Part shown: piece after piece, positions 1 through 26,354 of the stretch
Numbering within the stretch: position 1 is the first letter of the stretch
How the letters are laid out: each line of letters starts with the position of its first letter
Sequence record: PP129558
DNA from: Escherichia phage vB_EcoM_01
Reading direction: 5' to 3' (one strand)
Length of the DNA: 64,000 bases
Program-made: the position numbers and the translations under genes
The notes under the pieces: model-generated
What the model was told of the DNA's origin: nothing
Databases searched by the model: none
The model's input: the letters and a program-made list of their open reading frames with translations, nothing else

Positions 1-187
1 GAAAGTGCATTCCTCGCAAAACACCGAAGTTTGATTTAGACATGTTATCTTGAACGAAAGTTTGTCTACCAATGATATCTTCGTATTTTTGTTCATTATA
101 TGTTTCTAAAAAGAAACCACGATCATCTTTATAAACATCTGGTTTGATAATTACCGCACCTTCAATTTTTGTTTTTTCTACTTTCAT
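1..187 (-). CDS. rmlC: dTDP-4-dehydrorhamnose 3,5-epimerase (RmlC), N-terminal 62 codons; gene runs off the window start
   Basis: Minus-strand translation from ATG at 187 gives [33 protein letters not shown]...[20 protein letters not shown], matching the RmlC N-terminal signature as recalled from memory (RGFF.ET, FVQDNxSKS, VLRGxHF). ATGA start/stop overlap with rmlA. Absent from the ORF track only because it is truncated by the window edge. Confidence 0.7.
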
Positions 188-1062
188 TTTCTCTCCGCTA
201 ATTTGAGTAGGTATTGCCCGTACTCTGTTTTCTTCAGTGAGTTTCCATGATATACCAAAGTCTCTAAAGAAATCCACCCTTTTTTGAAAGCAATTTCTTC
301 CAGGCACGCAATCTTCAATCCTTGACGGTTCTCAATAGTCTGCACGAATTGACCAGCTTCCATCAGACTGGCGTGTGTTCCTGTGTCAAGCCAAGTAAAT
401 CCTCGTCCGAGAACTTCCACTTGTAACTTCCTGTCTTCGAGGTAGCTGCGATTGATATCTGTGATCTCCAGTTCTCCACGCGCGGAAGGGGTTACTTCTA
501 ATGCACGTTGAACAACAGAGTTATCATAGAAATACAAACCTGTGACAGCATAATCTGATTTAGGATTTTCAGGTTTCTCTTCAATAGAAATAGCTTGACG
601 ATTACTCCCAAATTCAACCACACCAAATCGTTCAGGATCTTTCACCAAATACCCGAAGATACAAGCTCCGCCACAAACATCTACCATCTCACTGGCGTTA
701 ATCAGTAGTTTACCAAAGCTTTGTCCGAAGAATAGGTTGTCACCTAAAATAAGAGCAACAGAGTCTTCTCCGATAAAATCTTTACCGATGATGAAAGCGT
801 CCGCAAGACCTCGTGGCTCGGATTGGATTGCGTAAGTGAGTTTTATCCCAAACATAGACCCATCTCCGAGAAGATACTCAAAGTCTTCCTGATCGCCTGG
901 TGTGGTGATGATTAAGATATCCTTAATGTCAGCCAACATCAATACCGATAAAGGGTAGTAGATCATGGGTTTGTCATACACAGGGAGCAATTGCTTGCTC
1001 ACACTGCGTGTTACCGGATGAAGGCGGGTTCCACTTCCTCCCGCCAAAATAATACCTTTCAT
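184..1062 (-). CDS. rmlA: glucose-1-phosphate thymidylyltransferase (RmlA)
   Basis: 292 aa; N-terminal [18 protein letters not shown] nucleotidyltransferase motif, overall length and pattern typical of RmlA/RfbA. Confidence 0.9.
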
Positions 1063-1070
1063 AACCCTCC

Positions 1071-2063
1071 TTAAATCTTCTCACTCCACCATTGAGGGTT
1101 GTTTAAGTACCATTCAATCGTTGAGTAGAGATCTTGTTCAAATGTAGAGTTTGCACTCCAACCCAGTTCAGACTCTATTTTAGAAGGATTGATTTCATAA
1201 CGCAAGTCATGTCCTTTACGATCTTCAACAAAAGTTATCAAGTTGGAAGAAGGGTAGGTTCCTGCTTCTGGATGTACAGTATCCATGTAGTCACAAACCA
1301 TATAGATGATCTCCATATTGGTTTTGGGATTACGTGTTCCAACATTATACGTTTGACCTGGTTCTCCACCTGTTGCCACTTGAAGAATAGCTCGCGCATG
1401 ATCCTCAACAAAAAGCCAGTCTCGCACCTGATCGCCTTTACCATACACCGGAATCTCTTTATTCGTCAAGATACTTGTGATGATTTTTGGGATCAGCTTT
1501 TCTGGATGTTGATAAGGTCCAAAGTTATTGGAGCAGTTGGTTATCACAACAGGTAAACCGTAGGTACGGTACCAAGCTTTCACAAGATGGTCAGATGCTG
1601 CCTTAGACGCACTGTACGGGCTTGAAGGGGCATAAGCTGTCTCTTCGGTAAAGGGAACGCCAGAGTCTGCCATATCACCGTACACTTCGTCTGTGGAGAC
1701 GTGTACGAACATCTTCAGTTTATTTTTTGGGAGGAGCCTTGCAGCTTCCAATAAATTGTATGTACCAATAATATTGGAGTCGATGAAAACTCGTGGATTC
1801 TTGATAGAATTATCCACATGACTCTCTGCCGCTAAGTGAATGATGAAATCGGGATTGCACTCTACTACTAAACTTTTTACTTGGGCTTCGTTTGCCAAAT
1901 CTGTCATGCTTAGTTTAACGTGAGTGATATCGCCTACATTCTCAATATCTGCTGCATAGCTCATCTTATCAACGACAAAAACTTCGTTATTAGGATCTTG
2001 ACAAAGAGAGCGCACCACGGCACTCCCAATAAAACCAAGACCACCTGTTACCAGATAGCGCAT
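1071..2063 (-). CDS. rmlB: dTDP-glucose 4,6-dehydratase (RmlB)
   Basis: 330 aa; N-terminal GGLGFIGS Rossmann motif and YSASK catalytic YxxxK motif of short-chain dehydratases; AAGGAG RBS 6 nt upstream. Confidence 0.9.
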
Positions 2064-2072
2064 CAGTTCTCC

Positions 2073-2399
2073 TTACCAGACGTTTTGTGATACTAATGTT
2101 TCAGTTTCAATATTATACTTATTAAGCAGTTCAAAATAGATCTCATTCGCTTTTTTATTTAAGCTTGTGAGGTCTATGGCACAAGCACCACAGCCGCTAC
2201 ACAGCTTGACACCGAAGACACAATCTTCAGGATCTGCATCGTACCACGGGGAAATGTTGTCCAAGCCCAAACCTTCGCAGAGAAACCAATTAAAGTCCCC
2301 ATCGAACTGGTCTTCAACTTGTGGGTCGTCTCCAAATATTTCTTTCCATTTATCATATGGTGCACCCTGTAACATATGCCATTCGATATCAATACCCAT
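2073..2399 (-). CDS. hypothetical protein (Cys-rich, CSGCGAC motif)
   Basis: 108 aa ORF in the gene-dense minus-strand operon; start overlaps the stop of the upstream small ORF. Confidence 0.4.
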   Translation of the reverse strand: MGIDIEWHMLQGAPYDKWKEIFGDDPQVEDQFDGDFNWFLCEGLGLDNISPWYDADPEDCVFGVKLCSGCGACAIDLTSLNKKANEIYFELLNKYNIETETLVSQNVW

Positions 2400-2553
2400 T
2401 ATTCATCTCCTCCTCTTCTTGAGCAGCTTTAATAATTGCTTCATAAATATCGTAAGCAATACCTCCACAACATCTAGCTTCGAAAGCTATTGCTTCTGCA
2501 ATGTGATCTGTTAATTCTCGTGGAATGCGGACATACTCTTTTTCACTCTCCAT
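2389..2553 (-). CDS. hypothetical small protein (54 aa)
   Basis: ATG at 2553 to TGA at 2389-2391, found by manual translation; below the ORF-track length cutoff; overlaps neighbours at both ends. Confidence 0.25.
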   Translation of the reverse strand: MESEKEYVRIPRELTDHIAEAIAFEARCCGGIAYDIYEAIIKAAQEEEEMNNGY

Positions 2554-2695
2554 CTTCTACCTCCAACCCTTCTTTTTCAAAGACTACTACTCGTCCCTCA
2601 CCATGACAATTCAGGCAAGGAAATGTTACCATAATTTCCACTTCCATCTGTCCCGTCCCACCGCACACAGGACAAAAAATAAGTTTTTCAGCCAC
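2543..2695 (-). CDS. hypothetical zinc-ribbon protein (50 aa, CPVCGG...CLNCHG)
   Basis: GTG start at 2695 preceded by AAGGAGG; two CxxC pairs; stop overlaps the next start. Confidence 0.3.
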   Translation of the reverse strand: MAEKLIFCPVCGGTGQMEVEIMVTFPCLNCHGEGRVVVFEKEGLEVEDGE

Positions 2696-2904
2696 TATTC
2701 CTCCTTAATTATTTCAAACTTGGCAACACCATTTACAATAATATGACCACAAGACATAACTCCTAGCCAAGGATCGCCGTTTTTCTTCAGGCGTTTACCG
2801 AATACATCACAAAAACCATTCTTCATTTCAGAGGCTTCATAAGAAGCCCCTTTGTCAAAAACGTCTTTGAATGTGTCGATTATACCAACACATTTCAAAA
2901 TCAT
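2695..2904 (-). CDS. hypothetical protein
   Basis: 69 aa ORF; start overlaps the nrdB stop. Confidence 0.35.
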   Translation of the reverse strand: MILKCVGIIDTFKDVFDKGASYEASEMKNGFCDVFGKRLKKNGDPWLGVMSCGHIIVNGVAKFEIIKEE

Positions 2905-3989
2905 TCGAAGTCAAGCTCCTCATCATCAGAGAGATCTTTGTTAGCTGAATTCAATTTGTAGTTAGTTAACTGAATCTCTTGGGCTGCTGACTGAATCAAA
3001 TCAGGATTCAACCATTTTTCCATCCAAGCTAAAGGACTATGTTTAGGTGCTTTAAACTTGGCTTTCATTTTCAATCGACGATAAATAGGGGCAGCATTGA
3101 AATAAACCCACTGTTTAGACAATTCGGCGTTAAGACCTACAATAAAACGCCCTTCACTAAACAGGTAGTCACACCACTGTTCCTCTTGTTCAACAACAGT
3201 GTCGAGAATCAAAGTCAACTCTTCGATATTGTCTTCGTAAATTTTACGCCAAATTGGGTCATGCATCAATGCATCAATTACAGCATAATCCATCTTAACA
3301 TGCAAGATTTCATCTAGCATAATTTTCTGGATCAGTTTACAAGCCCCAACAAACAGTTGTTGTTCTGCCATAGCAAAAGTAGCAGAGAAGGAAGATATAA
3401 ACTGAATACCTTCTAATCCAATCAGGGCTACCATCCCTTTAAGAATCAGCAGTCGAAGTTCATCGTTAGCTTCAATCAATCCTAGAGCATACTTATGACC
3501 AGCTTCTTCCAACTGACCCATGATATCAGCAATGATACCCATACGATTGAAAATTTTATCATTAATCATAATCTGATTGATGACTTCGATTGGATCTGGA
3601 GTACATTGACGGATTATTTCAGAATACGTTAACGCATGGAGAACTTCCATTTCACTCTGCTTCATCATCATAGCACAGGCTTCATTGTTACTCAAGAATG
3701 GAGAGAACAAAGTGATGATTGATTTTGCAAGAGAATCATTTTCCCATTGGAACGATAAGTTTTTAATCATAACATCATAGTTGTTTTTAGAACAAGCTAC
3801 GAAATCTTTACGTGTCTGATCCAGATTGACTTCATTCTCATCCCAATCTTGTGCTTTTTGAAGTTTGTAGAGTTTGTGCATCTCTGGATAAGTTACGTTA
3901 ACAGAATCAAAGATCCCTAATTGTTCCCCTAAAAATACTGGATATTTTCCTGTTTTGTAAACTTCATTGTGTAAATTAATTGCTGCCAT
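2901..3989 (-). CDS. nrdB: ribonucleotide reductase class Ia beta subunit (NrdB)
   Basis: 362 aa; ferritin-like R2 pattern and acidic C-terminal tail (DLSDDEELDFE) typical of NrdB; lies next to nrdA once the N gap is discounted. Confidence 0.85.
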   Translation of the reverse strand: MAAINLHNEVYKTGKYPVFLGEQLGIFDSVNVTYPEMHKLYKLQKAQDWDENEVNLDQTRKDFVACSKNNYDVMIKNLSFQWENDSLAKSIITLFSPFLSNNEACAMMMKQSEMEVLHALTYSEIIRQCTPDPIEVINQIMINDKIFNRMGIIADIMGQLEEAGHKYALGLIEANDELRLLILKGMVALIGLEGIQFISSFSATFAMAEQQLFVGACKLIQKIMLDEILHVKMDYAVIDALMHDPIWRKIYEDNIEELTLILDTVVEQEEQWCDYLFSEGRFIVGLNAELSKQWVYFNAAPIYRRLKMKAKFKAPKHSPLAWMEKWLNPDLIQSAAQEIQLTNYKLNSANKDLSDDEELDFE

Positions 3990-5124
3990 TTAAAATTCTC
4001 CTCAATAAAAAGGGGCCGAAGCCCCTAGTTTCATCACATCTTGCAAGCTTCACAACCACCATCAGAATCTTCTTGTGCTAAAGAGTCTGCTGATTTTGTT
4101 CTACTATTAAGGTAATACAATGANNNNNNNNNNNNNNNNNNNNNNNNNNNNNNNNNNNNNNNNNNNNNNNNNNNNNNNNNNNNNNNNNNNNNNNNNNNNN
4201 NNNNNNNNNNNNNNNNNNNNNNNNNNNNNNNNNNNNNNNNNNNNNNNNNNNNNNNNNNNNNNNNNNNNNNNNNNNNNNNNNNNNNNNNNNNNNNNNNNNN
4301 NNNNNNNNNNNNNNNNNNNNNNNNNNNNNNNNNNNNNNNNNNNNNNNNNNNNNNNNNNNNNNNNNNNNNNNNNNNNNNNNNNNNNNNNNNNNNNNNNNNN
4401 NNNNNNNNNNNNNNNNNNNNNNNNNNNNNNNNNNNNNNNNNNNNNNNNNNNNNNNNNNNNNNNNNNNNNNNNNNNNNNNNNNNNNNNNNNNNNNNNNNNN
4501 NNNNNNNNNNNNNNNNNNNNNNNNNNNNNNNNNNNNNNNNNNNNNNNNNNNNNNNNNNNNNNNNNNNNNNNNNNNNNNNNNNNNNNNNNNNNNNNNNNNN
4601 NNNNNNNNNNNNNNNNNNNNNNNNNNNNNNNNNNNNNNNNNNNNNNNNNNNNNNNNNNNNNNNNNNNNNNNNNNNNNNNNNNNNNNNNNNNNNNNNNNNN
4701 NNNNNNNNNNNNNNNNNNNNNNNNNNNNNNNNNNNNNNNNNNNNNNNNNNNNNNNNNNNNNNNNNNNNNNNNNNNNNNNNNNNNNNNNNNNNNNNNNNNN
4801 NNNNNNNNNNNNNNNNNNNNNNNNNNNNNNNNNNNNNNNNNNNNNNNNNNNNNNNNNNNNNNNNNNNNNNNNNNNNNNNNNNNNNNNNNNNNNNNNNNNN
4901 NNNNNNNNNNNNNNNNNNNNNNNNNNNNNNNNNNNNNNNNNNNNNNNNNNNNNNNNNNNNNNNNNNNNNNNNNNNATTAATTGCTGCCATTTAAAATTCT
5001 CCTCAATAAAAAGGGGCCGAAGCCCCTAGTTTCATCACATCTTGCAAGCTTCACAACCACCATCAGAATCTTCTTGTGCTAAAGAGTCTGCTGATTTTGT
5101 TCTACTATTAAGGTAATACAATGA
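3973..5124. other. assembly gap: N run 4125-4975 flanked by identical ~150-bp sequence (3973-4124 = 4973-5124)
   Basis: Flanks are identical and each contains the nrdA stop, a terminator hairpin and the nrdB start; uncollapsed contig-end overlap. ORFs 4034..4990 and 4120..4980 are artefacts. Confidence 0.9.
5005..5027 (-). terminator. intrinsic terminator-like hairpin between nrdA and nrdB (duplicated at 4005-4027)
   Basis: Minus-strand RNA reads AGGGGCTTCGGCCCCT followed by TTTTTAT; GC stem with TTCG loop. Confidence 0.5.
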
Positions 5125-7275
5125 TTTGCCACCCAGTCTAGCAAAATTCAAAATAAACTGCATCTCAGCTTTCACGGATAAACGTCCACCTACCAATTTA
5201 GAATAATCTAGCCAAGAATCACAAGAAATTCCTTGGTCAGTAAACTTGGTAAAGATACCATACATTTCTGCAAGGTCTTTAGCCGGAGTATCCCAGGCAG
5301 ATTGGTAGAACATTTTCAGTTTTTCGTAGTCTGGAACAATAAATAATACACTACCTTTCTGACTTTGTTTATACATAATGGTATCACGAACAGGATACAG
5401 AGAGTTAGTAGTATTGCTTACCAAACTGCTGGACTCATTAGGTGCAATAGCAGCCAATACACTGTTACGGATACCACCTTGTTCAATGATTTCAGCACGT
5501 AAGCCTTCCCAGTCCATTTTAAGATCAAAATTACCGATACTATCTACTGTTTTAGCATAAGTGTCAATTGGTAGCCAACCTTGAGGCCATTTGGTCTTAT
5601 CGATCCATTCTGCATTACCTTTTTCCTTAGCCAGACGCAGAGAGGCTTTTGCCAACCAGAAGTAATGACGTTCTGCAAGTTCATGCATTAATTTTTTAGC
5701 ATAAGCATCTGAATAATTTACAAAATTACTTGCCAAGTAATGCGCTAAGTTTGTAATGCCTACACCAATAGATCTACGTGCTTTAGCAGTTATTTCGTTA
5801 TGTTTAAATGGATAATCCATTGTTTCAATAACGTTGTCAATTGTCAATACAGTGTAGTATGCAACATCTTCATATTCTTCAGGTAATACACGACCAGCAA
5901 CAATAGAAGATAAGAAGCATAAAGCCAATTCTTGATCTTCTGTATTCTCACCAGTAAAGAGATCCGGCATACTGTGGAAAGCTTTAGTTGGTAAGAAGAT
6001 CTCTTGACACAGGTTTGATTGATACACCGTATCCAGGAAAGGTGTATGGTTGTTAACGTTGTCAGCAAAGAACATGTAAATACGTCCTGTTTCTGCACGT
6101 TGAACAATAATCTCTGTCAGAAGATCACGAGCCTTAACAAATTTTTTCTTAATGCGACGACGGCTTACTTTGTCATAAACTGCATCAAACTCTTCTTCAC
6201 TTTTATACAAAGCTTCATAAAGTTCTGGAGCATCATCACAACTAACTAACATCCAATCTTCGTTTTTTGCTGCTCGACGCAAGAATGAACGGTTAACAAC
6301 AATAGAATAATCCAGTTTGTCTACTCGTTTATCTATAGGTGTTGTTGGATTCTTCAGTCGAATCAGATCGTCGAAGTCTGGTTCAAGTATGGTAAAGGTA
6401 ACTGTAGCACTACCTCCACGGCTTGCTTGCTTCGAAGCTCCAACACTATCTTCCATCCATTTCAGATATGGAAGAAGACCACCATGAATAATACGATTAT
6501 TCTTAACACCTTGACCTGTGGCACGAGTTTGAAGATTAACACCAATACCTGCGTTATTTAACGTATACTCATGAGCTAAGTAATTAGCAATGGCTAAAGA
6601 CTCTGCTGTATCGTCTGCGCGGAATAAACAACAAGACGCACTTCCTTTGATTGGAGTTCGTAGAGTTGTCAGATACGGCGATGGCAGATTAATCTTAAGA
6701 TCGCTAACATAAGTATAAAGTTTTTTAATATCTTCTATACGGCGTTCTTTTGGTTGGATCTCCATAACCTTCATTGCGATACCAATGAAAAGAAACTGTG
6801 GAGACTCATGCACAACATCGTTTACTGCATCTCGAATAAGATATTTATCTACCATCTGACGTAAAACAGAATAACCATAAGTTAGATTTTTATTATGCTT
6901 TACAATCTTACCGATTTCTTTGATCTCTTCATCAGTATAATCCATTTTAGCCCAATGTCCACGTTCTACCATATCATGATAAAAGGTATTCAGTGAAGGG
7001 ATACTGTGGTATCCCCCATGAGCCTGTTTGTAAATCATACCCAGAAGAAGTCTTCCTGCCATATCACTGTAAGCTTGTGTTTTCTTGTCAATACACGCTG
7101 CAATCATTGCTTTATGCAGATCACGTGTAGACACACCGTCATAACACCGCTTCACAGCTTCTAATTCAATTTCAGACCAGTTTAGTTTACCTGCTGCAAA
7201 TTCAGACCACTTGCGAAGTTTTTCTGGATTAAACTCCTCTGTCTTACCGTTAGATTTAGTTACAAAACGAATCAA
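5035..7275 (-). CDS. nrdA: ribonucleotide reductase class Ia alpha subunit (NrdA)
   Basis: 746 aa; N-terminal ATP-cone-like region and C-terminal Cys pair (CEACKM) typical of NrdA. Confidence 0.85.
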   Translation of the reverse strand: MIRFVTKSNGKTEEFNPEKLRKWSEFAAGKLNWSEIELEAVKRCYDGVSTRDLHKAMIAACIDKKTQAYSDMAGRLLLGMIYKQAHGGYHSIPSLNTFYHDMVERGHWAKMDYTDEEIKEIGKIVKHNKNLTYGYSVLRQMVDKYLIRDAVNDVVHESPQFLFIGIAMKVMEIQPKERRIEDIKKLYTYVSDLKINLPSPYLTTLRTPIKGSASCCLFRADDTAESLAIANYLAHEYTLNNAGIGVNLQTRATGQGVKNNRIIHGGLLPYLKWMEDSVGASKQASRGGSATVTFTILEPDFDDLIRLKNPTTPIDKRVDKLDYSIVVNRSFLRRAAKNEDWMLVSCDDAPELYEALYKSEEEFDAVYDKVSRRRIKKKFVKARDLLTEIIVQRAETGRIYMFFADNVNNHTPFLDTVYQSNLCQEIFLPTKAFHSMPDLFTGENTEDQELALCFLSSIVAGRVLPEEYEDVAYYTVLTIDNVIETMDYPFKHNEITAKARRSIGVGITNLAHYLASNFVNYSDAYAKKLMHELAERHYFWLAKASLRLAKEKGNAEWIDKTKWPQGWLPIDTYAKTVDSIGNFDLKMDWEGLRAEIIEQGGIRNSVLAAIAPNESSSLVSNTTNSLYPVRDTIMYKQSQKGSVLFIVPDYEKLKMFYQSAWDTPAKDLAEMYGIFTKFTDQGISCDSWLDYSKLVGGRLSVKAEMQFILNFARLGGKSLYYLNSRTKSADSLAQEDSDGGCEACKM

Positions 7276-7291
7276 CTTCTCCTCCCTATTA

Positions 7292-7546
7292 TTAATGCAT
7301 ATTCAAAACATCTACATCATAACCGAACTTCATTTCATTAAAAAGTCCATTAGCATATAGAAAACCTTCAAAATGAGTTATGTCATCAAACCCTTTTGCT
7401 TTTGCTCGACGGTCTGCTTCTTGTCTTTTAGGAGATAAACGTTTTGAAGTGTCTAGAATTACAGTTACATTACAACCAACAGTTTCATCAAAATAGACTT
7501 CGATTTCACAGCCTTCATATTTATTATCAGTCATTGTCCCTCTCAT
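7292..7546 (-). CDS. hypothetical protein
   Basis: 84 aa ORF; alternative start at 7534 (MTDNK) behind a GAGAGGG RBS. Confidence 0.35.
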   Translation of the reverse strand: MRGTMTDNKYEGCEIEVYFDETVGCNVTVILDTSKRLSPKRQEADRRAKAKGFDDITHFEGFLYANGLFNEMKFGYDVDVLNMH

Positions 7547-7953
7547 TGATTAGTATCATCTGCTTTCGCAGGATCATAAGAGTTACCGAAATCATCCATC
7601 TTAATATGTGACGCACCCCAACCTGTAAATTCTTCATCACCAAAATGAAAAATATCATTTTCTTGGTAGATTCGTTTAAAACCACAATTAGGTGAAACAG
7701 GGAAAGTGAAAAGCGTTGTATTTGCAAACACTACTCGCTTATCGTTATTGCTTCGGATATTCACATTACGCTCAACAGAATAGTGTGAATCTTCAGCCAT
7801 ACCCAGCATTACAAGCGACGCTCTAATAACAGCATTTTGTTTCTCGTGTGGGATATTGCCATTGTGTTTATTTGATTCTAGTTTCCAGATAGGGGTAGAC
7901 ATTACAGTAGACATGCTTACGGTAGCCCAAGTTGTAGTATTTACTAATGACAT
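7543..7953 (-). CDS. hypothetical protein
   Basis: ORF track gives 7543..7986; the ATG at 7953 (MSLVNTTTW) has an AAGGAGAA RBS and is the likelier start. Confidence 0.4.
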   Translation of the reverse strand: MSLVNTTTWATVSMSTVMSTPIWKLESNKHNGNIPHEKQNAVIRASLVMLGMAEDSHYSVERNVNIRSNNDKRVVFANTTLFTFPVSPNCGFKRIYQENDIFHFGDEEFTGWGASHIKMDDFGNSYDPAKADDTNQ

Positions 7954-8007
7954 ATTTTCTCCTTCATTTTGAATGGGAGGACTCACCTCCTCCCAGTATT
8001 GTGCTAT

Positions 8008-8035
8008 ATTATACTAAAACTAATACTAAAGTCAA
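8008..8035 (-). promoter_or_regulatory. sigma70-like promoter (TTGACT-N16-TATAAT) on the minus strand
   Basis: Minus strand reads TTGACT, 16-nt spacer, TATAAT; followed by a GGGAGGA/TCCTCCC hairpin in the 5-prime UTR of the 7543..7953 gene. Confidence 0.55.
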
Positions 8036-8051
8036 TAATTATTTAAACAGA

Positions 8052-9050
8052 TCACCATTTAGTATGATTTGTTAAAAGTTGACGATGTTGAATCCAGCCT
8101 TTGAAATTGCCAGACCAAAACTTACCATTACGATCTACATGGGTAATACCTGGTTCCCAAGAGTTAAAATCCCAAGGAGCATTGATAAACAAATCTTCAA
8201 AACAGTTCTCTCCATATTGTTCGCATGTTTCTTGCATTGGAGTCGCTTGATGTTCAAACGGAGAAGCATGAACCTTGCGCCCAGTCAGCAAACGACCATA
8301 GATATCTAAAGCTTTATCTTTAGTTGCATTTAAACGACGATAGCTAACCTGTGCACAACACGAAGCTGAAATAGCTTTGGCTTCTTCCAAAGTAAGCACA
8401 ACAACTTCTCCAGATTCATCTTGAACGTAGTATCCACCAAAAACAAAATGATCGTCACCTTCTGTGCCAATATTATCATAGAAATGGTCTACATAAGGTG
8501 TGTGCCATTGCCCTGGTTTCAGCACTTCTGGTGTAGATTCTTCATACTCTTTGTGCATCTCTTTAGCCAAAGCTTCGATAGTAGGATCGGCTTCTTTGTC
8601 ATCACGTAGCCACCAGAAATTTTCATATTCTGTTGCTGTCAGAACTGTTTTAATTCGTTGGAAAGGTTCCAGAAGACGGTTTGCAACTTGTTTGTGGTAC
8701 CCTGCCAAAGAGAATTCTTCTGCAAAACGTGCTGCACTAAGCGCGGCAAGATCCCACCACTCTTGAGCAGTATAACCTGCATCAATAAGAGCGTCATGAT
8801 CAACACCTTTATCCTGCATACCAGGTTGGTTAGCCCCAAAACGATAAGGACGAGCAGGTTGATTTCGCACCATTTCAATCAGTGTTTTAACAGGTATAGC
8901 ACGGCTAGAAGCAGCATTACGACTGAACAGGCGGTGAGTCATCAATTCTGAATGAATAATACGTGGATATTCTAGTTCAAAAGTTACAATCTCTTTTCCG
9001 TCTTCAGTGATGGAATGCGCAATAATACTAGCCGAAATCTGTTTTGTCAT
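8052..9050 (-). CDS. ThyX-like (flavin-dependent thymidylate synthase family) protein, divergent
   Basis: 332 aa; HRLFSRNAASSR resembles the ThyX RHRxxSxNxxSxR signature and HASPFEH resembles the ThyX HxSPFEH motif, but in non-canonical order and spacing, with a second weak HR motif (QHRQLLTNH) at the C-terminus. Confidence 0.45.
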   Translation of the reverse strand: MTKQISASIIAHSITEDGKEIVTFELEYPRIIHSELMTHRLFSRNAASSRAIPVKTLIEMVRNQPARPYRFGANQPGMQDKGVDHDALIDAGYTAQEWWDLAALSAARFAEEFSLAGYHKQVANRLLEPFQRIKTVLTATEYENFWWLRDDKEADPTIEALAKEMHKEYEESTPEVLKPGQWHTPYVDHFYDNIGTEGDDHFVFGGYYVQDESGEVVVLTLEEAKAISASCCAQVSYRRLNATKDKALDIYGRLLTGRKVHASPFEHQATPMQETCEQYGENCFEDLFINAPWDFNSWEPGITHVDRNGKFWSGNFKGWIQHRQLLTNHTKW

Positions 9051-9059
9051 TTTTTCTCC

Positions 9060-9668
9060 TTAGTTTTTAAAATTGTTCAAAGTGTTAAAAACATCCAAAC
9101 ATGTTAGCCACTGATCTTCTAAACCTGTGATCACAACATTTGGTTTTTTCTTTAGTTCTTCTAGATGGTTATCTTTATAAGGCGTATTAAAATATATTTT
9201 AACCACTTCATCTGGAAAATATAGTAGGTTATCAGCCCTGTCATCTATTGCTATATCACAAGGCAATAAATATTTTTCTTTCGTAGCAAAAAAGCCGTTG
9301 CCAGATCCTTTGCTAAAATCAATCGTATCTAATGTTCTTAAAACATGCTTATGTTTAGAACTTAAGTGACCACCTTTTGTCACACTTGCGATCAAAAGAT
9401 TGCTACCTTTTCTTGAAACATACTTTAAGAAATCTGGCATACCTGTAACAAAACCCATTGTATCATAGAGATGAGGATTATCCAGAAATCCGTAAGGATC
9501 TATGTTGAACTCTTCCCTGAAACCAGGAAAATAGTTGGTAAGATCGTAATCTGCATTTTTTGTGAATGTGTCGATTTTAACACCAAGTCCACTAATCTTA
9601 TTCAACCATTCTAACCAAGCAACATCTAATGGAGCCACAACTAAATCCCAATCACATACTATCTGCAT
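9060..9668 (-). CDS. HAD-superfamily phosphatase, possible 5-prime deoxynucleotidase
   Basis: 202 aa; N-terminal DxD motif (VCDWDLV) and a late hhhhDD motif (IAIDDRADN) typical of HAD hydrolases. Confidence 0.4.
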   Translation of the reverse strand: MQIVCDWDLVVAPLDVAWLEWLNKISGLGVKIDTFTKNADYDLTNYFPGFREEFNIDPYGFLDNPHLYDTMGFVTGMPDFLKYVSRKGSNLLIASVTKGGHLSSKHKHVLRTLDTIDFSKGSGNGFFATKEKYLLPCDIAIDDRADNLLYFPDEVVKIYFNTPYKDNHLEELKKKPNVVITGLEDQWLTCLDVFNTLNNFKN

Positions 9669-9704
9669 AAAACCTCCTCTCTCTTTTAGTATAGTTATCT
9701 TATA

Positions 9705-10280
9705 CTAACTTTCAATTTCCTGCAATAGGATTTTGACTATTTGTTTACGGCGTTTAGCTACTGTGCTTTCAGGTTCTATTTTACGCTTCTTCAACCAAGC
9801 TTTATCTTTCTTAGCTCTACACAAAGCTATCGCTTCTTTTTCAGCTTTTGCTTCTTCAAAAGATATGCCTTGCTTGTCTGCATAAGCAAGAATAGAGTTG
9901 CACAATTTACAAACCATGCGCAAATCTTCTTCTTTCACATAGATTAAACGGAAAACAAAAAGAGGAATATCATCAAAACATTGAAGTTGTTTTGCTGCGT
10001 GAATATGATCCACTTGGAAGTCTTTCATTCCTCCTCTATGTCCACATATTTCGCACTCACAATTCCAAACTTGTTTTGGTTTTCCAGTTTTCTTGTCTAT
10101 CATCACATTGCCGTCTTTATCTACGCGATCAACTTTAAAACGCCTTGCATTGATAACCTTAATTTTATTAGGGTGTCTCATCCATGCTTTTCTAAAACAT
10201 CCTCTAAGATAAGTATAAAATTCCGCTTGTGTTTTCCAGGGTGTTCCTTCACCCCACATTATTTTTGGTTCACCTGCCAA
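9705..10280 (-). CDS. HNH endonuclease
   Basis: 191 aa; CECEICGH...QVDHIHA...CKLCN matches a CxxC-HH-N-CxxC HNH zinc-finger nuclease layout. Confidence 0.55.
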   Translation of the reverse strand: MAGEPKIMWGEGTPWKTQAEFYTYLRGCFRKAWMRHPNKIKVINARRFKVDRVDKDGNVMIDKKTGKPKQVWNCECEICGHRGGMKDFQVDHIHAAKQLQCFDDIPLFVFRLIYVKEEDLRMVCKLCNSILAYADKQGISFEEAKAEKEAIALCRAKKDKAWLKKRKIEPESTVAKRRKQIVKILLQEIES

Positions 10281-10327
10281 TATTGCTCACCTTTTTAGCT
10301 GTATATTCCCCTGGTGGGATATTGTGT

Positions 10328-10359
10328 TTAAAAAACAAAAGGCGGTCTAACCCCGCCTT
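10328..10359 (-). terminator. intrinsic terminator (minus strand)
   Basis: Minus-strand hairpin AAGGCGG...CCGCCTT followed by TTTGTTTTTT, downstream of the 10448..10849 gene. Confidence 0.55.
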
Positions 10360-10447
10360 GCACATTGTTTCTGGAATAGTCAAAGTTAGTAAAAGTTTAT
10401 CACCTTTTCGGTTGAATATTTTATAAACTTCTCCTGCTCCATATTGT

Positions 10448-10849
10448 TTAGTATTGCTCGCCACTAATACGTTCCTTAAGTTGTTTAATAGCTTCAACTG
10501 CATCTACATAAGAAGAGTTATACATGTGTTTCAGTGCCACTCGGATTAAAGGATCTTTTGTGAAGAAATCAATAAGAAGCATAGCTTGATCATGTTTAGC
10601 TGCATTTGTCATAGATGGATAATTTTCACGAACCATATACGTGTTATTTTGCATAAGGGTTCTTTCTAGTTCGATACAATGAATAGCTTTATCTAGGTTA
10701 ATCTGACGTTCACCTTTAATACGTGTTGCGTATTTTGCCAATTTGCAAAAACAAGGTGTGCCACCAACCAAATAAGTTAGTTCGATAGGTTGCATTGCCA
10801 TTTTTGTGTAGTGATCACCGTCAACCTGATTATCAAAAGCATTAGACAT
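10448..10849 (-). CDS. hypothetical protein (GDHY motif; possibly DUF3310-like)
   Basis: 133 aa ORF in the operon; family assignment is from memory of a GGDHY-type motif only. Confidence 0.35.
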   Translation of the reverse strand: MSNAFDNQVDGDHYTKMAMQPIELTYLVGGTPCFCKLAKYATRIKGERQINLDKAIHCIELERTLMQNNTYMVRENYPSMTNAAKHDQAMLLIDFFTKDPLIRVALKHMYNSSYVDAVEAIKQLKERISGEQY

Positions 10850-11114
10850 AATTTTCCTCCTGAATTCCTACTGCGCCTTCTTCTGGGTAATCTGTATAAT
10901 AAGCTACCCTACCTTGATAGATAACATCACCATCATCATTGTAGATTGCTGTATCTTCTTGAATTGTTATTTTAACGTCAAGTAAATCGGGGTCTTTCTC
11001 GATGGTGTAGTTTAAACCTAACATTTCAAACAGTTCGAAAATTTCGTTACCTGTTAATGTAATGCTCATATTTCCTCCTTTTATTGTGGTTAGCAGAGTA
11101 TACACTAATATCAA
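10842..11114 (-). CDS. hypothetical protein
   Basis: 90 aa acidic ORF; ATGA-type overlap with the downstream gene. Confidence 0.35.
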   Translation of the reverse strand: MILVYTLLTTIKGGNMSITLTGNEIFELFEMLGLNYTIEKDPDLLDVKITIQEDTAIYNDDGDVIYQGRVAYYTDYPEEGAVGIQEENYV

Positions 11115-11155
11115 ATTTTTGTCAATAAAAAAGGGAGCAATAAGCTCCCTGATTA

Positions 11156-12115
11156 TTAGATTCCAATAATAGTTGCTGCTCGTTTATCTTTGGATCTGGT
11201 GTTTGCTCTACTACGTGACAAACCTCCACAAGATTCACAACGAATGATATCGAAAGAACTTACCGCAGTGTGGTATTGTTTACCAGTAACAACGTGAACG
11301 TGATCACTGCCACAACGAGAACAACGGACCTTCTCATCTGGGTAATAAGCGGATAAGTTAGGATGCTGTGGAATCCACGGAAGGATTTTCATATACAAAT
11401 CACGGAGCGAAACAACATCACCATCATTGTAAATCTGCATACGTTCAAAAGCATCACGATCACCTTCACAACATGCTTTCCATAAAGGGAACCCCTCGTT
11501 ATCCAGTTTTTCACTTTCTGTTTCGAAATATGCTCCCATTTCTTTAAGGGAATTGGAAGGAAGTGCAAATTGTTTCTTAGCTGCCTTCAATGTATCAACA
11601 ACTACATAATTAGAAGGAGGAGCCATATCGTGATATGCAAATCGTTGGTTAATGTATGCACGGTCAAACTTATATCCGTTGTGTGCCACAACTACATCTG
11701 CCTCATTCAGAAGGTTCCAAAGATCTTGGCAAAGCTCCCAATCATCTGTATGATCAATATCAAAAAGAGGATAAGAAGACAAGTTCTTACCTTCCACTTC
11801 ACCAGTATACAGGTCGGCAGAAGAGTAAGATAACAAATAACCCCTACGAATTACTTGATCTGGAGAAATGAAGGCTTTGAATCGACGGAAAGTATATGCA
11901 ATCTCTGGTGCAGTTTCAACATCAATAATTTTAATAACTGGTTGTTTCTTTTTAACTGGCTCTTGTTTACTTGCTCCGAATCGTGCAAGGAAATCGTTCA
12001 CTGTGCTTTTTCTTGTTGGACTACCTAAAACAATTGCTGCAATATTGCGAGAAGACATACCCTCTGCACTCATACTAAGGATATCTGCTTTCTGCTCTTC
12101 TGTTAATCTGCTCAC
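11156..12115 (-). CDS. DEDD-family 3-prime to 5-prime exonuclease with C-terminal zinc ribbon
   Basis: 319 aa; Exo I (IIDVETAPE), Exo II (HNGYKFD) and Exo III (YNDGDVVSLRDLY) motifs of DnaQ-like exonucleases; two CxxC pairs near the C-terminus. Confidence 0.55.
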   Translation of the reverse strand: MSRLTEEQKADILSMSAEGMSSRNIAAIVLGSPTRKSTVNDFLARFGASKQEPVKKKQPVIKIIDVETAPEIAYTFRRFKAFISPDQVIRRGYLLSYSSADLYTGEVEGKNLSSYPLFDIDHTDDWELCQDLWNLLNEADVVVAHNGYKFDRAYINQRFAYHDMAPPSNYVVVDTLKAAKKQFALPSNSLKEMGAYFETESEKLDNEGFPLWKACCEGDRDAFERMQIYNDGDVVSLRDLYMKILPWIPQHPNLSAYYPDEKVRCSRCGSDHVHVVTGKQYHTAVSSFDIIRCESCGGLSRSRANTRSKDKRAATIIGI

Positions 12116-12801
12116 TCTGCCTCCTGTTGCGAGATGTATGACTGAAGCATACTCTCAAATGTTGTATCGTCATTATCCCAGCGTTTCATGTATACCAACT
12201 GGAAAATTGTTTCTATCCATTCATCTGTTGTCATATGGACTTCTTCTCCATCCCAAGAAGTAAAATTAACACCATCTGGGAACCATGAGTAGTAAGTATC
12301 TTTAACTGTTTGGAAAAGTTCTGCTTGAGTTTTACAAGCTGAAAGAAGATTAAAACAAGTAATATCTCCGAACTTAATATCAAAATCTTGATAAGGTCGG
12401 ATACTATCTGTTTTATCTCCCATTAGCATCTGATATGCTAACCAGTAACTGCCCCAACCTTTAACTTCTTTCTTTTTACCTTTATCTACGATCCATATGT
12501 CGCCAATAGACTCGTCAATAAGAATTATATCTGGATTTTTAAATACTCCATCCTCTTTGTAGAAATTAAAAAGGATACTAGGAGTATGTAAACTATCTTT
12601 ATCTATAGATACAACGATATAAGAAAATTTACCCGTCCTTTTATAATCTTTATAACCTTGGAAACCATACTTCTCTAACTCATCATCAGCTTCTATTACA
12701 GTAACAACATCACCATTGTGGAACTCCACAAGATAATCTTTGGTTTCTGAAAGCTGGAGTGGTTTGATATCTAATCGTTCAGATTTATATTCTACAGGCA
12801 T
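12112..12801 (-). CDS. hypothetical protein; reading frame stays open upstream to 13239 without an ATG
   Basis: 229 aa from the first ATG; the same frame has no stop for another 146 codons upstream and no in-frame ATG/GTG/TTG, so the true start is unresolved. Confidence 0.4.
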   Translation of the reverse strand: MPVEYKSERLDIKPLQLSETKDYLVEFHNGDVVTVIEADDELEKYGFQGYKDYKRTGKFSYIVVSIDKDSLHTPSILFNFYKEDGVFKNPDIILIDESIGDIWIVDKGKKKEVKGWGSYWLAYQMLMGDKTDSIRPYQDFDIKFGDITCFNLLSACKTQAELFQTVKDTYYSWFPDGVNFTSWDGEEVHMTTDEWIETIFQLVYMKRWDNDDTTFESMLQSYISQQEAE

Positions 12802-13243
12802 TTTGAAGGCGTGTCTGAAAGTTTTTCCTACGCCAATAACTCCGCAATATTTTTCTAAACGTAGATGTTTTAGAATACCTAAGACTTTTGTTTTAGCTGC
12901 TTGGAAGGTGTGTCCGATATCTTCTGGCGGGTATTGCTTATCAATGATTTCGAACTCTTCCTTTGTGAAGGGACGTTTGTTTTTGGAGGCTCTTTCTGCA
13001 TTTGTATCTCCTAGCCAACCTCCAATTTTAGTCTTGCTTTTACCCCAAAACTCTGTCTTATTTTTAAATTCCTTTTGAGCACCTGAAGGGATGTGCTTCG
13101 CAATGATTGTTCTTTTCTCTAATGCAGACGCTGCTTGGAAAGCGATCTGATCGTAATCAATTGCAGCTATTGTTTCTTCGTTGACATATAAATGAAGATC
13201 TTCAGGTTTAATTAAAATATAACCGCTAATATTTCCCCCCTAA

Positions 13244-13453
13244 TTATTCATCGTCATCCTCTGTTGAGAATGTTTTAGTATACGGACATTGACGACTTTT
13301 CGGGATTGCTATAACTTCATCTTGGTTAGCGTTAGAATAGTAGCAATATTTTGTATTGCCATTAACTTCAGAATCAGACAAGATTAAAGTAATTTGACCT
13401 GCTGCTACTGTGAAACTAAAAGCTAAAAGAACGACTGTCAGAATCTTTTTCAT
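13244..13453 (-). CDS. small secreted protein (signal peptide)
   Basis: 69 aa; N-terminal MKKILTVVLLAFSFTVAAG hydrophobic signal-like segment; AGGAGG RBS immediately after the upstream terminator. Confidence 0.4.
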   Translation of the reverse strand: MKKILTVVLLAFSFTVAAGQITLILSDSEVNGNTKYCYYSNANQDEVIAIPKSRQCPYTKTFSTEDDDE

Positions 13454-13463
13454 AACGCCTCCT

Positions 13464-13492
13464 AAAAAGCCTACCTCATTAAGTAGGTAGGC
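13464..13492 (-). terminator. intrinsic terminator (minus strand)
   Basis: Perfect 8-bp stem GCCTACCT/AGGTAGGC followed by TTTTT on the minus strand, then the AGGAGG RBS of the next gene. Confidence 0.65.
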
Positions 13493-13525
13493 ATAATATC
13501 ATAACTAATCCCGCAAGTCAAGAAC

Positions 13526-14404
13526 TTATTTAAGGATTGTTGCTTTGGTTAAATCTTCCATCAGACCTCGAATCTCATTGAAGCACAGAAGGACCGAAGC
13601 TTCAATACTACCTTCTTCGTCTGCAAAATATTTCGGAAAACGTAGTTTAGAAAGTTTAAACTCTTTATCCACTACAAAATCTACAACACCGTCATATTCA
13701 AGACCGATTGCAACAACATCTTTACCATCTTCTTTTAGTTCGACAGCTTTAGACTCGTATAGGGATTCTTTACTCCAAACAACAACGCCCTCGCTATCCT
13801 CCATTTTGATATAATTTCCGAGAGTAATACGATCTGCTTCGTGATTCTCCAGCAATTCACCAAAACCTTTCACAATAGCTTCTTCATGCACACTAAAACC
13901 TACCGAAGGGAAAGTCCCCAGAACGGAACGGAGGAAAGAAGTAATCTCTTCTGCAACCTTTTTACTTCCATTAAGAACATAAAGAAGATTCGTAGTTTTA
14001 TCCAGAACCACATAATTGAAGAAATCTTCCGGTTCGGTTTCTGGGAGCAGACCAAATTCAATATCAGCTTTCAGGACTTTCATGTCTTCTTTAGCTACAA
14101 AGAATTCTTGGCCTTGGCTTTCCATATCTACTCGAATTTCTTCCAGGCGTTCATTAAGAAGACGTTTAACTTTCTTCTTGTCAACTTTCTTAACAGATTG
14201 ACCAACCTGGAGGAGTTCCAGATCGGAGAACTCTTTTACGTATTTCCCATCATCTTCAAAACGAACCAGACCAATAGTATGGGCTTGAGATCCTTCGGCA
14301 GGTACAAAGTCAATCGGAAATTCGTTGAACTCGTTCAGAGACGCTACAGAAGCATTATCACCAGCAACCATCGGAAGTGCAGATTTAAAAGATTTAACGA
14401 ACAT
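13526..14404 (-). CDS. RdgC-like recombination-associated protein (tentative)
   Basis: 292 aa; length and residue pattern (LLP..F, V.D..S.K.AE, LR.SLG..P) loosely resemble RdgC as recalled from memory; not searched. Confidence 0.35.
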   Translation of the reverse strand: MFVKSFKSALPMVAGDNASVASLNEFNEFPIDFVPAEGSQAHTIGLVRFEDDGKYVKEFSDLELLQVGQSVKKVDKKKVKRLLNERLEEIRVDMESQGQEFFVAKEDMKVLKADIEFGLLPETEPEDFFNYVVLDKTTNLLYVLNGSKKVAEEITSFLRSVLGTFPSVGFSVHEEAIVKGFGELLENHEADRITLGNYIKMEDSEGVVVWSKESLYESKAVELKEDGKDVVAIGLEYDGVVDFVVDKEFKLSKLRFPKYFADEEGSIEASVLLCFNEIRGLMEDLTKATILK

Positions 14405-14430
14405 ATATTTCCTCCTATTATTTAACTCTC

Positions 14431-14453
14431 ACAATAACCGCCCCGAAGGGCGG
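14431..14453 (-). terminator. terminator-like hairpin (minus strand)
   Basis: CCGCCC-CGAA-GGGCGG stem-loop downstream of the 14462..15190 gene; weak U tract. Confidence 0.4.
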
Positions 14454-14461
14454 CTTACAGA

Positions 14462-15190
14462 TTATTTCTTAGCAATGATTTTTGCAATATCAGGTTTAAC
14501 AAAGGTAGAAGGCTTCATGATCTTACCTTTATCATCAAAGAACACATACACTTTCTGTTTTTCATTATAAACAGCATGAACACCAGTGTATGCCCCTTCT
14601 GGACGATTGGCATTTCGTTCTTCAATTGCAGCGCATTCTTGTGCAATGGCTGAATCGATATCCGAAGTTTTCCAAGTTTTCAGCAACTGTTGTTTAGTTG
14701 GATACTTGGAATCATTACTTTTCAATACCTCTTTAATAACTTTCTTTTCTGGATATTTTGAACGGATTAGAGTGTCACGAGACATACGCATAATACCAGC
14801 AGCCATTAGTGCCATTTGAACTGGCTCTGTAAATGTTTGTTCCAAAGCATCAAAATCAGTATACACAGTTGGAGTAAAAACATCGCCTACAACATAGTCC
14901 AAGAAATTCATCGTATGTTCTTCACCAAAGAACATGTAAGTAAGATAACTGGATACTACAAAAATATCCGCTGCTGCATCCAAGAGTTCTACATGATCGT
15001 TTACTTTCGCGGCTGTTTCATACTCTTTAAGCTCTTCACGAACGAACCCGATTTGGGACATAAATAGCTCTTGAGTGAATTCAGGTTGTTCACCACCTCG
15101 TGCTTTGGCATTCCAATCAATTACGTGCTTTGCTGCATTTTTGAAAAATTCAGTATCGAATTTAATATCTTTAAAAAAATTCTCGATCAT
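14462..15190 (-). CDS. hypothetical protein, possible MazG-like NTP pyrophosphohydrolase
   Basis: 242 aa; REELKEYETAA...ELLDAAADIF resembles the EExxE...ExxD acidic motif of MazG-type enzymes; weak. Confidence 0.3.
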   Translation of the reverse strand: MIENFFKDIKFDTEFFKNAAKHVIDWNAKARGGEQPEFTQELFMSQIGFVREELKEYETAAKVNDHVELLDAAADIFVVSSYLTYMFFGEEHTMNFLDYVVGDVFTPTVYTDFDALEQTFTEPVQMALMAAGIMRMSRDTLIRSKYPEKKVIKEVLKSNDSKYPTKQQLLKTWKTSDIDSAIAQECAAIEERNANRPEGAYTGVHAVYNEKQKVYVFFDDKGKIMKPSTFVKPDIAKIIAKK

Positions 15191-18785: not shown

Positions 18786-18786
18786 A

Positions 18787-24570: not shown

Positions 24571-24572
24571 AC

Positions 24573-24647: not shown

Positions 24648-24650
24648 GAA

Positions 24651-24831: not shown

Positions 24832-24843
24832 TTTAAAAAACTA

Positions 24844-24872: not shown

Positions 24873-24881
24873 TATAAGTAT

Positions 24882-24972: not shown

Positions 24973-24977
24973 GATTA

Positions 24978-26352: not shown

Positions 26353-26354
26353 GT

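Follow-up and report, generated by a model that had tools for sequence, protein, structure and literature searches.

Escherichia phage vB_EcoM_01 (sequence record PP129558) carries, at the left end of the 64,000-nucleotide stretch that we have analysed (hereafter the window, meaning the whole of that stretch), the genes rmlB and rmlA and the beginning of rmlC, part of an operon predicted to lead to deoxythymidine diphosphate-L-rhamnose (dTDP-L-rhamnose). Our preferred interpretation, to which we give a probability of about one half, is that this operon supplies the donor for a short rhamnose-containing glycan that would be built on a candidate acceptor other than DNA. The enzymes that would build it are four glycosyltransferases (GTs) encoded in a distant cassette of the genome, as seen in a closely related phage. 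The phage is a lytic, phAPEC8-like coliphage (genus Phapecoctavirus, Stephanstirmvirinae), and this end of the window corresponds to its nucleotide-metabolism arm. In a nucleotide comparison, Phapecoctavirus genomes aligned to 94% of bases 1-15190 with an identity of 97-98%, the close relatives being the phages vB_EcoM-Ro121c4YLVW, ukendt, nieznany, phAPEC8 and ESCO13. The rml genes of the window, and the small open reading frames (ORFs) that separate them from the ribonucleotide reductase gene nrdB, are the following:

1..187, minus strand: 5' part of rmlC (dTDP-4-dehydrorhamnose 3,5-epimerase), first 62 codons, truncated by the window edge; the translation includes LRGMHF
184..1062, minus strand: rmlA, glucose-1-phosphate thymidylyltransferase, 292 aa; Pfam NTP_transferase 1.9e-73, NCBIfam rmlA equivalog
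1071..2063, minus strand: rmlB, dTDP-glucose 4,6-dehydratase, 330 aa; Pfam GDP_Man_Dehyd/Epimerase, NCBIfam equivalog
2073..2904, minus strand: small ORFs between rmlB and nrdB, one of 108 aa at 2073-2399 and one of 69 aa at 2695-2904; two shorter ones are annotated in ukendt

The three rml genes had been recognised in the initial annotation of this sequence, made from the letters and translations, and both the family scores and the motifs bear this out. RmlA scored 468.6 bits against an NCBIfam equivalog cut-off of 360.65 and RmlB 431.5 against 365.1. The window ends inside rmlC, and both RmlC (at full length) and RmlD were scored on the proteins of the 98%-identical phage ukendt, where they reached 225.8 and 237.4, the NCBIfam equivalog cut-offs being 155.75 and 224.05. 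The translations preserve intact the motifs GGSGTRL (GGxGTRL) of RmlA, GxxGxxG, TDEVYG (TDEV) and YSASK (YxxxK) of RmlB, and RG(L/M)H of RmlC, and in the alignment the allosteric LEEIA of RmlA is conserved as well.

The four genes are tightly coupled in the order rmlB-rmlA-rmlC-rmlD, with a gap of 8 bp followed by overlaps of 4 and 7 bp; the ATG of rmlC, at 187, overlaps the stop codon of rmlA as ATGA. A look just outside the window for rmlD, as had been suggested, located it immediately beyond the left edge, as seen in ukendt. There the full operon (rmlB, rmlA, rmlC, rmlD) is followed by genes for a glutaredoxin, a lysozyme and PhoH. The initial annotation also had the rml genes overlapping in one operon with nrdB and nrdA, and this has to be corrected; in fact ~830 bp of small ORFs lie between rmlB and nrdB. 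The 108-aa ORF matches phrog_15453, of unknown function, and its G+C content at third codon positions (GC3) is 0.40, similar to that of the rml genes. From the family membership of its products, rmlBACD is predicted to be the pathway to dTDP-L-rhamnose, and the translationally coupled operon would turn glucose-1-phosphate and deoxythymidine triphosphate (dTTP) into this sugar nucleotide.

A look for glycosyltransferase genes outside the window had likewise been suggested, and a cassette of them was found ~12 kb past its right end, ~73 kb from rml. It consists of four consecutive genes annotated as GTs (gp216-219, at 145.5-148.7 kb of ukendt) and sits between the endolysin gene and those of the primase/helicase and DNA polymerase. 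Two of the products, gp218 and gp219, are paralogues (41% identical) with Glyco_trans_1_2/GT4-type matches (GT-B fold), while gp217 is a GT2-like enzyme of GT-A fold with the invariant FIFDDD and YGxED motifs, and gp216 is a small protein labelled glycosyltransferase by PHROGs. No transmembrane segments were present in any of the four. The same four-gene cassette, adjoining the primase/helicase, is found in Bas62, a member of Justusliebigvirus, and the arrangement of GTs recurs in more distant environmental relatives. The stretch 1-9560 of ukendt (outside the window) contains a Ter-type cluster (vWA-TerF-like, TerD, TelA, a TerC membrane protein, a ComF-like phosphoribosyltransferase, a phosphatase and a hydrolase), which is kept adjoining the GT cassette in distant environmental relatives.

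The distribution of the two loci is parallel. RmlA homologues above 65% identity were found only in Phapecoctavirus, Justusliebigvirus (~71%) and the Klebsiella phage 05F01 (67%), and homologues of the GT-A enzyme above 40% belong to the same three lineages (75-76% in Justusliebigvirus and 44% in phage 05F01). The matches of RmlA amounted to 178 records, a few unrelated or metagenomic ones set aside, versus 336-1034 for three neighbouring proteins of nucleotide metabolism (ThyX-like, HAD and MazG-like, see below). In the Vequintavirus group there was no sign of RmlA or of the GT-A enzyme in the counts or in the listed matches. We infer from this co-occurrence alone that the rml operon and the four-GT cassette are functionally paired. 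The initial annotation had reasoned that a phage with such a pathway must glycosylate something, and the co-occurrence of a four-GT cassette with rml in a lytic phage with an intact pathway goes in the same direction.

Along these lines, four soluble GTs (two GT4-like GT-B paralogues, a GT2-like GT-A enzyme with a DDD motif and one small protein) would use dTDP-L-rhamnose in the cytoplasm. As candidate acceptors we would rank the virion protein(s) of the phage first and an undecaprenyl-linked glycan of the host envelope second. Glycans on capsid proteins have been described in Che8 and Rita, mycobacteriophages of cluster F (PMC11256854).

The predicted structures of the enzymes were compared with known folds. 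The closest structure to the GT-A model (pLDDT 87) was a viral GT-A enzyme, A197 of the Sulfolobus turreted icosahedral virus (STIV), and the next neighbours were collagen, mucin-type and O-mannose protein GTs, the teichoic-acid enzymes TarS and TarP, and RmlT, which uses TDP-rhamnose. Against viral models (BFVD) the same model retrieved generic GT2-like proteins, with TAGT-domain structures appearing only at ranks 23-24. The GT-B model (pLDDT 93) is GT4-like, and its neighbours include BshA, PglA, MshA, PimA and the protein O-GTs GtfC, Gtf3 and SdgB. No T4-type DNA GT (alpha- or beta-GT) was found among the top fold matches of the two models. At the level of sequence, GT-A gave short local matches to TAGT (E 1.3e-3, below its cut-off) and to phrog_842, the T-even beta-glucosyl-hydroxymethylcytosine alpha-glucosyltransferase (E 5.5e-6), each of ~40 residues and confined to the nucleotide-binding/DxD segment. 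The fold neighbours of GT-A and GT-B are generic GT2-like and GT4-like enzymes, and the acceptor is not identified from them.

A different kind of information comes from the genomic settings in which related GTs are found. In a Serratia prophage, a cassette with homologues of gp216, gp217 and gp218 separates the lysis genes from those of the terminase, and a lambdoid contig has a GT-A plus GT-B pair next to its lysis genes; the module is therefore mobile in the absence of partners that modify nucleotides. The GT-A enzyme is also weakly similar (27-28% over ~130 aa, E ~1e-8) to GTs of the right-end locus of ~330 mycobacteriophage records, of which those listed are of cluster F type. We considered whether the coliphage GTs might be orthologues of those involved in virion glycosylation in Che8, and we make no such claim, the best match being marginal. 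Che8 gp108 matched the coliphage GT-A only at E ~0.01, and gp109 and gp110 gave no match.

Several points weigh against a glycan on a non-DNA acceptor. The connection with phages of demonstrated virion glycosylation is a weak one, as illustrated by the marginal match to the Che8 gp108-110 locus. The capsid, decoration, sheath and tube proteins have no obvious Ser/Thr-rich (C-terminal) tails. In addition, the rml and GT genes are located among DNA-metabolism genes of early/middle type and not among the structural ones, a position that would suit DNA or host targets too. The local matches of GT-A to TAGT and phrog_842, together with the TAGT structures lower down in the search of viral models, belong on this side of the balance, and so does the fact that the link between rml and the GTs is one of co-occurrence only.

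The second-ranked acceptor, the host envelope, deserves separate consideration. Here rhamnose and other sugars would be added by the soluble GTs to an undecaprenyl-linked intermediate (e.g., Und-PP-GlcNAc) or to the lipopolysaccharide (LPS) core, altering LPS, O-antigen or another surface glycan, and the gain for the phage would be a block to superinfection or a progeny that does not adsorb to debris. We hold this possibility only tentatively, and the weight that we give to it is a part of the one half stated above for a non-DNA glycan, not an addition to it. Among the top fold neighbours of GT-B, the enzymes PglA, PimA, MshA and BshA act on lipid-linked or small acceptors, and those of GT-A include TarP, TarS and RmlT, which belong to cytoplasmic wall teichoic acid glycosylation. 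TarP, which is soluble and encoded by a prophage, remodels a glycopolymer of the host envelope. Besides, the homologues of the cassette adjoin the lysis genes of temperate phages, and sites beside lysis genes are typical moron positions. However, the known seroconverting phages of Gram-negative bacteria use membrane Gtr systems, and the phage studied here, which lacks a flippase, a ligase, a polymerase and any membrane-anchored component, would have to rely on the Wzx and WaaL of the host. A strictly lytic phage has little time for turnover of the surface, and no phenotype has been reported. On the other hand, adsorption of these phages needs surface glycans, namely the NGR glycan and the LPS core (PMC8594841; PMC11990801), and dysregulation of RmlA alone can perturb the O-antigen output of E. 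coli (PMC12773781).

That the target could be DNA has been suggested before. Olsen et al. (2020) noted the pathway and proposed the rhamnosylation of hydroxymethylated bases (PMC7552041). According to this hypothesis, phage GTs would transfer rhamnose from dTDP-rhamnose to a hydroxylated or hydroxymethylated base, like the glucosyl-hydroxymethylcytosine of T4 or the arabinosyl-5-hydroxycytosine of RB69, with the modified precursor coming from the ThyX-like, HAD and MazG-like proteins, which would also keep out the canonical deoxynucleoside triphosphate. We consider it unlikely, although there are arguments for it besides its previous publication. The rml genes lie inside a nucleotide-metabolism module and the GT cassette adjoins the primase/helicase and the DNA polymerase; the local matches of GT-A to TAGT and phrog_842, weak as they are, could point to DNA; and a precedent exists in the phage-encoded UDP-arabinose pathway of RB69 and DLP3 (PMC13326640).

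The restriction behaviour of these phages speaks against such a modification. Maffei et al. (2021) found the Vequintavirinae and their relatives to be 'exceptionally susceptible' to restriction-modification (RM) systems, the phi92-like phages Bas60-62 included, and remarked that the sensitivity of the latter holds 'despite ... a putative dTDP glycosylation machinery' (PMC8594841). Bas60-62 (Justusliebigvirus) have the same rml operon and four-GT cassette as the group of the window. In a collection of phages of avian pathogenic E. coli (APEC), HincII restriction fragment length polymorphism (RFLP) patterns were obtained from five Phapecoctavirus isolates, ESCO13 and ESCO25 among them, and from three of Justusliebigvirus; the phages left uncut were only three others, at least two of them Tevenvirinae (PMC10269720). 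The RmlA of ESCO13 and ESCO25 is 97% identical to that of the window. The tension between dTDP glycosylation genes and RM sensitivity has been summarised in a 2024 paper (PMC10844046).

The enzymes that would prepare the base are another difficulty. The annotation of ukendt contains no base hydroxymethylase, hydroxylase or TET/JBP enzyme, and a Pfam scan of 74 unannotated ukendt proteins (25 listed of 28 families) detected no ThyA-type hydroxymethylase or hydroxylase, no TET/JBP and no extra GTs. Furthermore, the folds of the GTs match those of protein, teichoic-acid and lipid GTs and not those of the T4 alpha- or beta-GT. What is left is the neighbourhood of rml, which the initial annotation had read as a single modification island. 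It comprises these genes:

2901..3989, minus strand: nrdB, class Ia ribonucleotide reductase small subunit; Pfam Ribonuc_red_sm 6.3e-33, 84% identical to phi92 NrdB
5035..7275, minus strand: nrdA, class Ia ribonucleotide reductase large subunit; Pfam Ribonuc_red_lgC 2.9e-97, lgN and ATP-cone, 87% identical to phi92 NrdA
8052..9050, minus strand: long-form phage ThyX-like protein, 332 aa; Pfam Thy1, phrog_85 2.1e-109
9060..9668, minus strand: HAD-type predicted 5'(3')-deoxyribonucleotidase, 202 aa; NT5C 23.7 bits versus a cut-off of 24.8 (just under), phrog_420
14462..15190, minus strand: MazG/HisE-type nucleotide pyrophosphohydrolase-like protein, 242 aa; Pfam PRA-PH 28.1 versus a gathering score of 21.3, over residues 34-85 only

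As regards the identity of these genes, the first reading was right. The Pfam matches of nrdB and nrdA are clear, and 'divergent ThyX-like' is an accurate label for the product of 8052-9050, which passes Pfam Thy1 (35.0 versus a gathering score of 24.8) over profile positions 59-191 only and falls below the cut-off of the NCBIfam thyX equivalog (TIGR02170, 31.6 versus 87.9). Compared with the canonical flavin-dependent ThyX, this protein keeps the HR-x7-S-x-R core along with the Pfam Thy1 match, but it has ~100 more residues, carries Thr in place of the first Arg of RHR and does not reach the equivalog score. In the whole family the motif THR-x7-SSR(A)(I/V)P takes the place of RHR-x7-S, with THR-x7-SSR in 108 of 112 representatives. 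Full-length homologues are present in 1034 records of the phage collection, with identities of 54% in Vequintavirus rV5, 54% in ICP1, 49% in Pakpunavirus and 41% in the N4-like G7C, and also in phiCbK-like phages; metagenomes add at least 5000 cluster representatives, and some members are fusions or tandems of ~630-650 aa. The family appears to be a distinct long-form ThyX clade with nothing particular to this phage.

Of the other two enzymes, the possible MazG-like one stood up, passing the PRA-PH threshold and matching phrog_671, 'nucleotide pyrophosphohydrolase', at 2e-29. The HAD phosphatase is weak, its NT5C score falling under the cut-off and no NCBIfam match being found. It has a DxD-like N-terminal start (MQIVCDWDLV), and the fold prediction of the phi92 annotators for the orthologue gp079 was of a predicted 5'(3')-deoxyribonucleotidase. 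Neither the HAD nor the ThyX-like protein (the latter at E<=1) had a PDB sequence match; the search with these two, the MazG-like protein and three of the four GTs returned nothing meaningful at E<=1.

It is the distribution of these genes that dissolves the island. The HAD protein is found in 400 phage records, rV5-like phages among them, and the MazG-like one in 336, including PVP-SE1 and rV5, while the ThyX-like protein, the sole thymidylate-synthase-like protein of the phage, is carried by rml-less phages too. All three are core genes of relatives such as rV5 and PVP-SE1, which have neither rml nor the GT cassette, and the neighbourhood of rml is therefore positional. At most, the ribonucleotide reductase, ThyX-like, HAD and MazG-like genes would help to supply dTTP. 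Genes do not form a modification island simply by adjoining those of ribonucleotide reductase and ThyX, and the informative signal is the co-occurrence of rml with a distant GT cassette. The restriction sensitivity of the group, and the lack of a hydroxymethylase or TET enzyme in what was scanned, disfavour the DNA modification proposed at the outset, and bulk hypermodification of any base is very unlikely. A sparse or sequence-specific rhamnosylation of the phage DNA, leaving most restriction sites cleavable and relying on an undescribed acceptor chemistry, strikes us as a long shot; the sugar could be placed, for example, on a hydroxymethyl base that the ThyX-like family with the THR motif would make, or directly on a base that is methylated or carries no modification. 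Were it true, it would be the first DNA modification with a 6-deoxyhexose and the first to depend on a dTDP-sugar.

A purely metabolic role is also quite improbable. The Rml enzymes would then work independently of the GT cassette, either to buffer dTTP and glucose-1-phosphate or draw them off, or to produce dTDP-sugars that stop the host from making glycans or dividing. It is true that rml adjoins dTTP-producing enzymes, and a hyperactive RmlA in E. coli drains the deoxythymidine pools, stops O-antigen synthesis and blocks division (PMC12773781). However, all four steps to finished dTDP-L-rhamnose have been kept under selection in two genera, a drain of dTTP would be harmful to a phage that has to replicate 150 kb of DNA of 39% GC, and the strict co-occurrence with the GT cassette would be left unexplained. 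The allosteric-site Glu motif LEEIA is conserved in the phage RmlA, which is therefore probably still under feedback control. The idea of an RmlA that escapes feedback and serves to shut off the host was entertained and discarded in view of this conserved motif and of the active-site Phe, which is also found in RfbA and RffH of E. coli. The diversion of precursors of the enterobacterial common antigen (ECA), whose Fuc4NAc is fed by dTDP-4-keto-6-deoxyglucose, was likewise dropped; the phage RmlA and RmlB raise that precursor, and the NGR glycan, not ECA, is now regarded as the primary receptor of these phages.

The genome of phi92 provides a view of how the operon came to its present place. 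Its gene order is HNH, thymidine kinase, HAD, ThyX-like, two small ORFs, NrdA, one ORF, NrdB, small ORFs, RmlB, RmlA, RmlC, RmlD and glutaredoxin (Grx), and the notes in its record map the genes flanking rml to PVP-SE1 gp131, gp134, gp136, NrdA, gp139 (NrdB) and gp141 (Grx). Shared by phi92 and PVP-SE1, the HAD/ThyX-like/NrdA/NrdB/Grx module is ancestral. Because the flanking genes of phi92 match a PVP-SE1 module without rml, we take rml to be an insertion between nrdB and grx. In keeping with this, the GC3 values are 0.39-0.41 for rmlA, rmlB and the 108-aa ORF, 0.35 for nrdB and 0.23-0.31 for the other neighbours. The proteins are 71% (RmlA), 62% (RmlB), 63% (RmlC) and 54% (RmlD) identical to those of phi92. 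The corresponding figures for E. coli are 64-66% (RfbA/RffH), 51-52%, 52% and 33%, and the DNA of E. coli is only 65-67% identical to the phage rml. By these comparisons the operon is an old horizontal insertion that did not come from E. coli.

The notion that the rml genes were recently picked up from the host and are passengers that play no part in infection, which the raised GC3 of rmlA and rmlB (a trace of foreign origin) and a B-A gene order like that of the E. coli rffG-rffH pair could suggest, has a next to negligible probability, given the low identity to E. coli, an operon shared by two genera at the same site with phage-phage identities (54-71%) closer than those to the host, reading frames that are intact and above the equivalog cut-offs, and an RmlA conserved at 95-99% in dozens of isolates from several continents. 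A recent insertion of this kind, which the initial annotation had named among the outcomes that together would undo its proposal, is largely refuted by the location of the operon at the same site in phi92 and the low E. coli identity.

The region between nrdA and nrdB has a peculiarity of its own:

3975..5124, no strand: 1001-bp tandem duplication spanning the junction of nrdA and nrdB; the 149 bp of 3975-4123 recur exactly at 4976-5124
5012..5027, minus strand: terminator-like hairpin AGGGGCTTCGGCCCCT plus T-run, strong, right after nrdA

The duplicated stretch corresponds to the junction formed by the 3' end of nrdA, the terminator and the 5' end of nrdB, and a second copy of the AGGGGCTTCGGCCCCT hairpin is found within it at 4011-4026. 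Between the two repeat copies 852 bases (4124-4975) are masked as N, and a 318-aa ORF at 4034-4990 is spurious, a product of the duplication. No reference phage has this duplication, and they align with a gap of ~1 kb. It could be an assembly artefact, or a true duplication or insertion. In phi92 there is an additional 218-aa gene between nrdA and nrdB.

Other features of the window and of its relatives can be mentioned briefly. Every gene from 1 to ~23000 is on the minus strand, followed by 11 tRNA genes and then by the structural genes on the plus strand. The tRNA cluster (24496-26509, plus strand; Met x2, Arg, Ser, Asn, Thr, Gly, Gln, Pro x2 and Ile) separates the divergent early and late arms; its two copies of tRNA-Pro(tgg) are side by side, and single N bases fall within it at 26175 and 26177. 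Apart from the N run at 4124-4975, the window has another at 21483-21844, among small early genes, and a third at 51695-54002, within a large tail-spike-like gene (51337-54174). The intergenic DNA that separates the MazG-like gene from the ligase gene contains the hairpin TCCCAAGTGCCTGGGA twice, at 15449-15464 and 15594-15609, 145 bp apart, each copy with identical promoter-like hexamers immediately upstream (15349-15376 and 15494-15521), which makes a short direct repeat. The minus-strand region 17448-19338 contains a small P-loop kinase-like protein (AAA_33, 17448-17852), a T4 Rnl1-type RNA ligase (17853-18785) and a calcineurin-like phosphoesterase (18787-19338), a trio that resembles a split tRNA-repair module (Pnkp plus Rnl) and is likely a counter to anticodon nucleases. 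Outside the window, the genes of ukendt annotated as hypothetical include NADAR, Macro and Sir2 domain proteins, which may act in the reversal of ADP-ribosylation or in NAD-related counter-defence. Finally, the 'Campylobacter phage' records MG0656xx (B15, A150, A110a, A145 and others, with Campylobacter jejuni as host label) are near-identical to E. coli genomes of Phapecoctavirus, Justusliebigvirus or Vequintavirus, and their host labels are probably wrong.

The initial annotation took a nucleotide-sugar branch of this kind to be new to phages, which is wrong. The genes are annotated in every relative listed, with phAPEC8 cited as the source of the annotation, and the DNA idea was anticipated by the work of Olsen et al. 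cited above (PMC7552041), so that locus, annotation and DNA-modification hypothesis are all already in the literature. Our analysis adds the proposed link between rml and a four-GT cassette far away in the genome, an account of how the operon was inserted, the observation that the GT cassette passes between phages, and a case against bulk DNA modification that brings the separate arguments together. For a lytic coliphage, a complete dTDP-rhamnose pathway and four GTs are a costly cargo, and one that has been conserved across two genera, many members of which were isolated as candidate phages for therapy or biocontrol. If the virion carried a rhamnose glycan, the immune recognition and the pharmacokinetics of therapeutic phages would be affected, as reported for mycobacteriophages. 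If instead the host envelope were remodelled, this would represent a new route of superinfection exclusion in a lytic phage.

Several known systems resemble the one described here in part. The bacterial RmlA-RmlB-RmlC-RmlD pathway (rfbBDAC of E. coli, and rffG/rffH of the ECA cluster) is made of the same four families and shares the catalytic and allosteric motifs of RmlA, whereas in the phage the order is B-A-C-D, the proteins are divergent and the setting is a lytic phage with no adjacent genes for O-antigen, capsule or S-layer. T-even DNA glycosylation (T4; RB69 and DLP3) is similar in that phage-encoded GTs are found among DNA-metabolism genes, and RB69 and DLP3 also have their own nucleotide-sugar supply (PMC13326640). 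Those systems, however, need a ThyA-family dCMP hydroxymethylase or hydroxylase and give restriction-resistant DNA, whereas no such enzyme was found in the annotation of ukendt or among the Pfam families listed for it, and the DNA of this group of coliphages is restriction-sensitive. With the mycobacteriophages of clusters F and O (the systems of Che8 and Rita) the likeness is in a cluster of soluble GTs placed away from the structural genes (PMC11256854); Che8 and Rita lack a sugar-nucleotide pathway, unlike the coliphage, for whose group glycosylated virions have not been reported. TarP, TarS and the RmlT of Listeria are similar to the coliphage GT-A at the level of the fold only (10-13% identity), and RmlT shares the use of TDP-rhamnose, but the host of the coliphage is Gram-negative and has no teichoic acid. 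The closest system is the rmlBACD of Phapecoctavirus (phAPEC8, ukendt and ESCO13) and Justusliebigvirus (phi92 and Bas60-62), which is the same locus, with order and position matching phi92, and from which the window differs only in the partly masked 1001-bp duplication.

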